A DNA stretch of 64,000 bases. It comes from Curvularia clavata (lineage: Eukaryota). Position numbers and translations under genes: made by a program. The notes under the pieces are model-generated. The model did not search any database and was not told the origin of the DNA. It saw nothing but the letters and a program-made list of their open reading frames with translations. This document shows, one piece after another, positions 18,795 through 20,394 of this stretch (positions are counted from its first letter, which is position 1; the number at the start of each line of letters is the position of its first letter). The DNA lies in NCBI GenBank assembly GCA_023920165.1, contig CP089279.1, positions 62,001 through 126,000 on the forward strand, read 5' to 3'.

Positions 18795-19118
18795 TCAATC
18801 CTTTGCTCCCCTGACCTTGGCGCCGAGCTCCTTGCCATGGGCTTTCATGTATTCGTCCCTCTCTTCCTGAGTTGTGAGTTGTACATATTCCTTCCCTTCC
18901 TCTGAGTCCGTGGGGTACAAATAGTAAATACGTCCGTTCACCTTTCTGCTGAAACAGGGGATCGGAGTCTGAAAGGGACGGGCTGCATCTGATGACTGGC
19001 TAGACGGGAAAGGTTGTTGTGCATTAGGCATGTCTTGTAAAGATGGGATTTGCTGTTCTTCAGTAGGCAGGACTGGAGCTGCCACTTGTTCTTCGCGATT
19101 ATGTTGGTTAGAAGCCAT
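18795..19118 (-). CDS. Small non-secreted hypothetical protein (107 aa) with disordered N-terminus and compact C-terminal domain
   Basis: ATG at 19118 (MASNQH), no RIP-type stops, TATA-like sequence at ~19183. The C-terminus resembles that of the divergent neighbour. Confidence 0.6.
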
Positions 19119-19761
19119 TTGTGATTCTGTTGTGTGGAAAAAGTGAAGTCGACGTGTGTGCCAATGTGGCACAGTGAGGGGTAATATATTATCTACGTAA
19201 TGTTAGGCTCGCTTTCGGCTAGCTATTGACCTGCTACATCTTTACATCCGAACTTCCGGCTTAGCTGTCGATTACGGAGTTTTACCATGGTGATCATATG
19301 TGGCACAGTAAAAGTTCGGATAGCCGGCTATTGTCCTTCGAATCTCCCTTACAAGATCGGCTATCCATTGACACGGTTCTCTATCCTTGCTAGCAGTCAA
19401 TAGTCTCTATTACCACGCAATGCACTCACGATCCCAAGCGCGAGCTCTAGATTCTCAACCTGATAGATCGGACCAGTTGTAGTACTGTATTCACATCAAG
19501 TTGAGACACACAGTTGGCTATGGAATACTTTCTCCATATTCATGACGTGATGTCAACAAGAGAACGGACCGCAGCCATTCCTAGACTATCTTCGCAAAAT
19601 CCTTCTGGGCGTCTCTTAGCCAGAACGCGAATCTATAAAGAGGTAGTATATGGTCCTCTTAGCAAATGCACACCACAGATACACAGAGAATCAGGTACAT
19701 GCTCTTAGTAAAACCAATCGTGTGTAACTAACCTGAAAACTAGTTGATCCCAACCAGAATC

Positions 19762-20394
19762 ATGCGTTCTCCCAATACCATCTTTACCTTGTTCCTACTA
19801 GTTTCACAAGCAAGTGCTATTGTCTTGCTGCTTTATAGCGACAACGGTTGCCTCCTAGACCAAGAGGATCCAGCAGAAGATGCGCTTTGCATTGTTCTGG
19901 ATTACAACTCCTGCTGCGGCGATCCTGATGAACTGTATGGGTCGGCAGTTGGGAATCTAGAAGAAGAGAGTTGGCCGGATAGGCCTGTGCTTCGCGCATT
20001 CAATCGGGAGGCCGGGGAAAATCCACCTCCCAATCCATGTGCTTTGGTTCGAGCACAAATGGAGCTAACCAACGATGCTTCCAATCCTGGCCAATTTCCA
20101 TGTCTAGAAGGTCCGGCAGACGATGCTTTTCACGGATTTCAAGTCGATATCGTTCCGCCTGCAGTTCGTGCTGGTCGGGAGAGGGCGAAAGTCACTGGCC
20201 ATCTTGTCCCTCCCAATGGATGGGGTATCTACGAAGGCGGATCCATTTATGGTATCCATCGCAACTCAGAGACAGGTATCTTGTTCGAACTCAGCCGTGG
20301 CAACATGACCGTGATGGAGAGGCGGGAGTTCATCAAGTCGCACAACATACTTCAGATTGAACCCGCCTCACAAAACGCCAAGATCTCAATTTAG
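19762..20394 (+). CDS. Small secreted Cys-containing protein (210 aa), candidate effector/toxin
   Basis: Signal peptide MRSPNTIFTLFLLVSQASA, six Cys (C..C..CC..C..C) in an acidic N-terminal domain, basic linker RAGRERAK, TATAAA at ~19634. Confidence 0.75.
   Translation: MRSPNTIFTLFLLVSQASAIVLLLYSDNGCLLDQEDPAEDALCIVLDYNSCCGDPDELYGSAVGNLEEESWPDRPVLRAFNREAGENPPPNPCALVRAQMELTNDASNPGQFPCLEGPADDAFHGFQVDIVPPAVRAGRERAKVTGHLVPPNGWGIYEGGSIYGIHRNSETGILFELSRGNMTVMERREFIKSHNILQIEPASQNAKISI

Follow-up and report, generated by a model that had tools for sequence, protein, structure and literature searches.

Two intact genes face away from each other within a decayed region of the Curvularia clavata genome. 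One of them, ORF A, encodes a protein with a signal-like N-terminus, and the other, ORF B, encodes a small protein with no such signal. The initial annotation of this locus proposed that B carries a free copy of the C-terminal domain of A and that the two form a toxin-immunity module. The locus therefore raises two questions: whether the two proteins are related at all and, if so, why a secreted protein should be encoded beside a signal-less relative of one of its own domains. The stretch of DNA analyzed, referred to as the window, is 64,000 nucleotides long, and its features are listed in Table 1.

Table 1. Features of the gene pair and of its surroundings, in window coordinates
Feature	Position	Strand	Remark
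ORF A, 210 aa, intronless	19762..20394	+	two-domain protein, ARB_05566-like
A signal peptide, residues 1-19	19762..19818	+	cleavage site inferred from sequence and alignment
A N-domain, residues 20-133	19819..20160	+	six Cys, net charge -18
A linker, residues 134-146	20161..20199	+	no KR/RR
A C-domain, ∼residues 147-200	20200..20361	+	beta-hairpin, two helices and strand predicted
ORF B, 107 aa	18795..19118	-	no signal, single copy
B residues 51-100	18819..18968	-	homologous to the C-domain of A's family; profile match residues 60-96
B residues 1-50	18969..19118	-	Q/P/S-rich arm, faster evolving (homologue identities)
Divergent intergenic region, 643 bp	19119..19761	.	shared promoter inferred
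Non-coding element upstream of B	19157..19192	-	recurs upstream of the ∼50% B homologue
GT..AG intron, 106 nt, 3' untranslated region of B	18667..18772	-	joint in X1 contig
299-nt inverted arms	7600-7898 and 17413-17711
300-nt direct repeats, LTR-like	9583-9882 and 16510-16809		around retroelement remnants
DDE_3 fragment	16884-17297

Genomic setting of the gene pair

The genome holding the pair comprises 32.4 Mb in 8 contigs. The locus is situated ∼81 kb from the start of contig C6, among nuclear transposons, and contains an intron of the spliceosomal type. The coordinates and strands in the initial annotation, with a divergent gap of 643 bp between the start codons (19119-19761) of the head-to-head genes, were found to be correct. 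Transposon remnants and broken genes flank the pair. The TpA/ApT dinucleotide ratio is 1.2-1.8 in the flanks (17001-18600 and 21001-21800), which is RIP-like, versus 0.49 and 0.72 inside the two ORFs, which is not. This agrees with the earlier description of two intact genes in decayed surroundings.

Several neighboring features were recorded. A nested transposon block occupies window positions 7500-17900. A small repeated element just 3' of ORF B (17999-18322) is matched by several different contigs in 4/4 runs, with one joint to the opposite strand among the matching contigs. Tail-to-tail with ORF A lies a broken minus-strand gene (20745-21300). Its 3' part, which is still open (20776-21042), codes for a segment rich in Cys and Trp; this segment gave no match in a Pfam search and no second copy in a genome search. 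Runs X9 and X10 contain contigs related to the broken gene at a depth of 170-1000, and their differences from it are mostly A>G and T>C, which suggests that the copy at 20745-21300 is RIP-damaged. Inspection of the frames at 28814-64000 indicates an ordinary gene-rich region, with a carboxylesterase identified by Pfam and frames that we take to be sugar transporter-like, oligopeptide transporter-like, chitin-binding-like, sterol glycosyltransferase-like and Zn-cluster regulator-like.

ORF A resembles a family of secreted proteins

Hydropathy and homologue alignment give A a signal-like N-terminus (maximal 8-residue hydropathy of 3.12) followed by a Cys-rich domain. The six cysteines, at residues 30, 43, 51, 52, 93 and 114, are aligned across homologues, and the count of Cys and charges (net -18) matches the six-Cys acidic N-domain reported earlier. 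Models of the N-domain were poor (pLDDT 37.8), and no fold could be assigned by fold searches with it. Prediction of the C-domain reached a modest pLDDT of 54-72 and gave a hairpin, two helices and a strand. The strand and Cys pattern of A might hint at a beta-gamma-crystallin-like or killer-toxin-like fold (a two Greek-key beta-sandwich).

Neither A nor its N-domain matched any Pfam family in the local Pfam copy, and across 19 family members Pfam returned only two weak, unrelated matches (E 0.057-0.059). In a comparison of language-model features, A scored 0.94, 0.93 and 0.93 against PF28391 clusters, with 195-200 of 256 features shared; the recognition value for this likeness is 1916, below the tool's mark of 2300. 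A likely resemblance to the ARB_05566-like family of Ascomycota (PF28391, ARB_05566_N) is accordingly treated as a strong lead. The supplement of PMC5069957, as far as it was available, gives the namesake ARB_05566 a signal peptide, detection by MS and the label uncharacterised. Files 8 and 10 of that supplement show flat expression (TPM 6-13) without regulation in infection, and the main-text passages covered here make no mention of ARB_05566.

A profile search for A yielded 12 representatives, and 11 remained once a repeat protein had been removed; five relatives share 60-65% identity with A. In a related strain, 7 of the 12 substitutions listed for the A frame are silent and 5 change a residue, the list being incomplete. 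A and B were each found once in the genome, copy counts that are lower bounds. Genome searches that started from three distant relatives of A and one of B revealed no further family member, and query P0044 gave one extra match at E 3.16.

ORF B is a conserved stand-alone protein

The absence of a signal peptide in B, noted in the initial annotation, fits its maximal hydropathy of 1.49 versus 3.12 in A. The values for three homologues are 0.59, 0.35 and -0.59, and a hydrophobic N-terminus is found in 0/4 of these proteins; the signal-peptide calls for both A and B are made from hydropathy alone. B is presumably cytosolic. Its stand-alone homologues share 86%, 78% and ∼50% identity with it, and in the most distant one an internal Met yields the same first five residues, again with no signal. 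Conservation is concentrated in the C-terminal half: identities over residues 51-100 versus 1-50 are 48/50 versus 38/50 in the first homologue, 43/50 versus 15/21 in the second and 28/48 versus 23/50 in the third. B does not, as had been proposed, consist of the shared domain only, as residues 1-50 form a Q/P/S-rich, faster-evolving arm that is probably disordered. In the related strain, whose contig differs at 4 places in all, both substitutions listed for the B frame are silent (2/2 in an incomplete list). At the level of sequence, B is conserved as a stand-alone protein that lacks a predicted signal.

The annotated database protein P0008 carries other residues after position 101 (18795-18815), as in an intron-based gene model. 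Contigs of X1 and X2 cross 18795-18815 without a joint, which supports the 107-aa form of B.

Transcription and the intergenic region

Contigs from 4 of 10 listed runs, which come from at most 3 studies, were aligned; none of the four is recorded as RNA, and contig depths are unsuited to ranking or comparing genes. In 4/4 runs, ORF B and ORF A are covered by separate contigs. Those over ORF B extend up to 18770-19141, and those over ORF A run from 19742 to at most 20486, so that the B side reaches 19141 and the A side begins at 19742. The X1 contig has a loose end of 25 letters that equals 18639-18663 at 23/25 letters, and the 106 nt skipped form a GT..AG intron on the minus strand. The X1 and X2 contigs both stop at 18770, and the splice joint is seen in one contig (X1). 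A spliced transcript from B's strand exists. Transcription of the minus-strand ORF, on which the toxin-immunity proposal depended, is therefore observed as contigs over B in 4/4 runs, one with the spliced minus-strand intron. Runs X9 and X10 also contain additional B-like pieces of ∼80-86% identity at 18725-19066, beside near-identical ones; these come either from another B-type transcript or from another organism in the samples.

The intergenic region would provide one promoter common to both genes, and A and B may be co-regulated. The non-coding element upstream of B agrees with the region upstream of the ∼50% B homologue at 7/9 translated positions, the best of 40 control pieces reaching 6. 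The 10-mer GTGGCACAGT occurs twice between the ORFs (19166-19175 and 19300-19309) and nowhere else in the window, with 74 occurrences in the 32.4 Mb genome versus 45 for the reversed control. It is a candidate regulator site, and its copy at 19166 falls within the upstream element.

The domain shared by A and B

The initial annotation had aligned the two C-termini by eye. As a pairwise match this alignment does not stand: BLASTP of A versus B from their sequences alone gives an E of 0.76, which is chance level, and the local score was reached by 979/5000 shuffles for the full-length proteins and by 64/5000 for the C-termini alone. Profiles support it. The hhalign probability for A versus B is 7.7% with 6 close homologues and 81.6% with 14 sequences (E 1.1e-5 over 36 columns), both values coming from the profile-profile comparison that the initial annotation had called for. 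An HMM of the C-domain of A's family, built without B, assigns B 17.7 bits (per-sequence E 1.2e-7), with 0/5000 shuffles above 6.4 and reversed sequences at or below 2.1. This HMM places B second among 750 window frames, after A itself, and a larger version scores all four B proteins at 14.1-18.5 bits; scores at this level carry significance when B is compared as a chosen target, and would go unnoticed among billions of proteins. The residues aligned by the profiles are those picked out by eye. Profile evidence of this kind shows B to be homologous to the C-domain of A's family.

The relationship is a distant one. The two domains are identical at 13/54 positions (∼24%), which makes B a distant paralogue and not, as first suggested, a copy of A's own domain. 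A profile built only from B-type proteins scores P0028 at 12.7 bits, P0026 at 9.9 and A at 1.4, with 1 of the 11 targets (P0020) giving no score; this preference for P0028 and P0026 over A indicates that B has not tracked A's sequence. In a tree of 57 columns and 19 rows, the B-type clade (support 100/98) sits on a long branch. Its neighbors are P0026 and P0028 (support 87/91, flagged as a long-branch join), and the AU test does not reject a tree in which B is held together with A's clade (p-AU 0.126). Judged by profiles and tree, B is an old paralogue of the family C-domain.

The linker between the two domains

The dibasic motif KR/RR is the Kex2-type processing site of fungal secretion. Such a motif between the two domains is found in 9/11 distant family members versus 0/7 A-clade proteins. 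Its presence in the distant ARB_05566-like members suggests that these are processed in a Kex2-type manner; its absence from 7/7 A-clade linkers speaks against the cleavable C-domain that had been proposed for A. While A resembles the ARB_05566-like family in language-model features, its clade differs in this respect from the distant members. The linker of A is basic, as first described, but this character is not conserved among relatives: one Arg is replaced by Gly in the related strain, another by Trp in the 89% homologue, and the linker differs throughout in the 60-65% homologues.

In the distant members P0026 and P0028, a Cys opens the C-domain right after the dibasic site; as in two-chain toxins, it could hold the cleaved domains together. 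Neither this Cys nor the dibasic site is present in A's clade. B-type proteins retain one Cys in the first strand.

Linkage of the two genes

The only two detected carriers of the domain in 32.4 Mb are located 643 bp apart. The 89% A homologue and the 86% B homologue are each present on 2 contigs with the same longest length of 16,292 bp; this agreement in count and length suggests that they probably share one contig. This second co-located case comes from a close relative (86-89%), and common descent could be enough to account for it. No A-type protein could be linked to the more distant B homologues. A search for A/B synteny in a second genome gave one false locus in a metagenome scan and none in a viral scan. 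A-type proteins outnumber B-type proteins in homologue searches, a count affected by the greater difficulty of finding short genes such as those of B type, so the majority of family members may lack a partner of this kind. Adjacency at 13/54 identity and with a long B branch implies that the linkage is very old, or that it was re-formed in a RIP-marked transposon region.

Interpretation of the gene pair

The reading we favor, at a probability of about 0.35, is that A and B belong together as an old two-gene module with coupled functions, in which B is an intracellular antagonist. A would be a secreted two-domain protein, and B, separately transcribed and cytosolic, would combine a flexible arm with a diverged free C-domain and act in trans on A in the producing cell. 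It could bind the N-domain surface normally covered by the attached C-domain, as the initial annotation proposed, or it could act on the C-domain, as a pairing partner or a competitor; the active part of A may be the C-domain. B would neutralise those A molecules that are not imported into the ER or that return to the cell. A meeting of cytosolic B with secreted, disulfide-bonded A would require A or a fragment of it in the cytosol. The main argument for coupling is positional: the sole detected carriers stand head-to-head despite deep divergence and unstable surroundings. If the coupling, which we infer, is accepted, a free cytosolic domain would most simply be an antagonist of mis-targeted or re-entering A. 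That B is most conserved in the shared domain, and keeps its start and upstream element at ∼50% identity, is consistent with coupling.

Several observations speak against a coupled antidote. The N-domain is acidic (-18), matches 0 Pfam families and gives no sign of toxicity; the namesake's expression is flat, A's clade has no dibasic site, and the two proteins would occupy different compartments. B has not tracked A's sequence, and most family members may be partnerless. The more specific proposal of a chromosomal toxin-antidote module, in which the antidote is a separate, cytosolic, diverged homologue of the secreted protein's C-domain, is rather unlikely. The toxin-immunity reading of the initial annotation is a reasonable and testable hypothesis, supported in the domain homology and in the transcription of B but not in its proposed mechanism.

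Under a closely competing alternative, only slightly less probable, A and B are paralogues that are linked but serve separate functions. They would have come to lie side by side through an ancient inverted partial duplication or a joint transfer, B would never meet A but have its own cytosolic role, for example with the same kind of ligand or partner, and adjacency would reflect history plus a shared promoter. The different compartments, the greater proximity of B to P0026/P0028-type domains than to A and the missing cleavage site in A's clade are all expected under separate jobs, as is a second co-located case explained by the shared ancestry of a close relative (86-89%). However, in a transposon-rich region the two genes have apparently stayed linked while their domains diverged to ∼24% identity, and the tree joining B with A's clade is not rejected (p-AU 0.126). 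Cooperation between the two proteins would account for the layout in another way, since interacting fungal effector pairs with a shared promoter, such as Avr2/SIX5 and SIX8/PSL1, are also arranged head-to-head (in passages of PMC10942635). B would then be a helper in folding or delivery, or a co-effector, possibly exported without a signal peptide, and would provide in trans a free C-domain such as other family members release by Kex2 cleavage. The dibasic site, at 0/7 in A's clade versus 9/11 in distant members, fits this idea, as processing could become unnecessary where a second gene encodes the free domain. A cooperating pair is nevertheless distinctly improbable, given that 4/4 B sequences have no signal peptide and that the effector pairs described join two different structural families (same passages).

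The last alternative, that B is what is left of a decaying full-length paralogue and owes its transcription, without any function, to a bidirectional promoter, draws on the transposon-rich surroundings with their broken genes and on the long branch to B. It is very hard to sustain: the frame is intact and the start is the same in homologues down to ∼50% identity, the domain is better conserved than the arm, and both listed B-frame substitutions in the related strain are silent (2/2). B bears no RIP marks, and a search of the six frames across 17500-19761 detected no N-domain remnant, the best score being -3.5 bits. The intact frame, the conserved start and the stronger conservation of domain than arm largely refute a functionless relic.

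The self-inhibition of chromosomal fungal antifungal effectors is acknowledged as unexplained, and an open question is by what means filamentous fungi avoid harm from the antifungal proteins that they secrete (in the parts of PMC12382754 drawn on here). The antagonist reading makes the A/B locus a two-gene, single-copy and directly testable candidate, and an antidote module, if true, would provide the first function for the widespread ARB_05566-like family. Even if B is no antidote, a conserved free cytosolic form would make the family C-domain an independent functional unit, not a mere tail, and so a handle on a widespread uncharacterised secreted family.

Comparison with known systems

Openly accessible literature, covered for most papers at the level of titles and abstracts, yielded no description of a stand-alone C-domain partner of the ARB_05566-like family or of a head-to-head arrangement in this family. 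The nearest parallels come from two sides. Head-to-head effector genes of Fusarium oxysporum, Avr2/SIX5 and SIX8/PSL1 (PSE1), have a shared promoter and interacting products, and they resemble the A/B pair in being adjacent divergent genes for small proteins, with a shared promoter region, in a repeat-rich setting; in contrast, both of their partners are secreted and belong to unrelated structural families, whereas B is signal-less and homologous to a domain of A (as described in passages of PMC10942635). Killer toxin-immunity systems (K28, K1 and K2; zymocin, PaT and DrT) combine a secreted protein with a candidate protector that is encoded next to it or overlaps it, as here, where the putative protector B is transcribed 643 bp from A. 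The signal / domain / KR / domain layout of distant A relatives also resembles a killer preprotoxin. However, killer precursors are cut at dibasic sites, and the A-clade linker is free of KR/RR in 7/7 proteins; a search for sequence similarity of A to killer toxins found none.

The absence of a dibasic site and the chromosomal location place the A/B pair outside the killer-immunity class, and an unsecreted partner homologous to a domain of A places it outside the effector-pair class. Single-domain dominant-negative paralogues or antidotes are known among microProteins, CARD-only and PYD-only proteins and wtf poison-antidote pairs. By analogy alone, these suggest that a short one-domain relative could antagonise a larger protein, although they act in the compartment of their target, unlike B with respect to secreted A.

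Dedicated immunity factors validated so far come from yeasts and are all extrachromosomal, carried on a cytoplasmic dsRNA satellite or linear DNA element, whereas the A/B pair is chromosomal; nuclear immunity candidates do exist, including zymocin-like clusters in filamentous fungi (both according to the passages of PMC13442484 drawn on here). K28 immunity is a cytosolic complex of the re-entered toxin with its own unprocessed precursor, so that protection comes from the toxin's own sequence in cytosolic form (PMC5666379, in part), in contrast to the separate gene for a diverged single domain found here. If the antidote reading is true, the A/B locus would represent self-protection of the K28 type that is built into the genome as a second gene, with one bidirectional promoter serving both genes.
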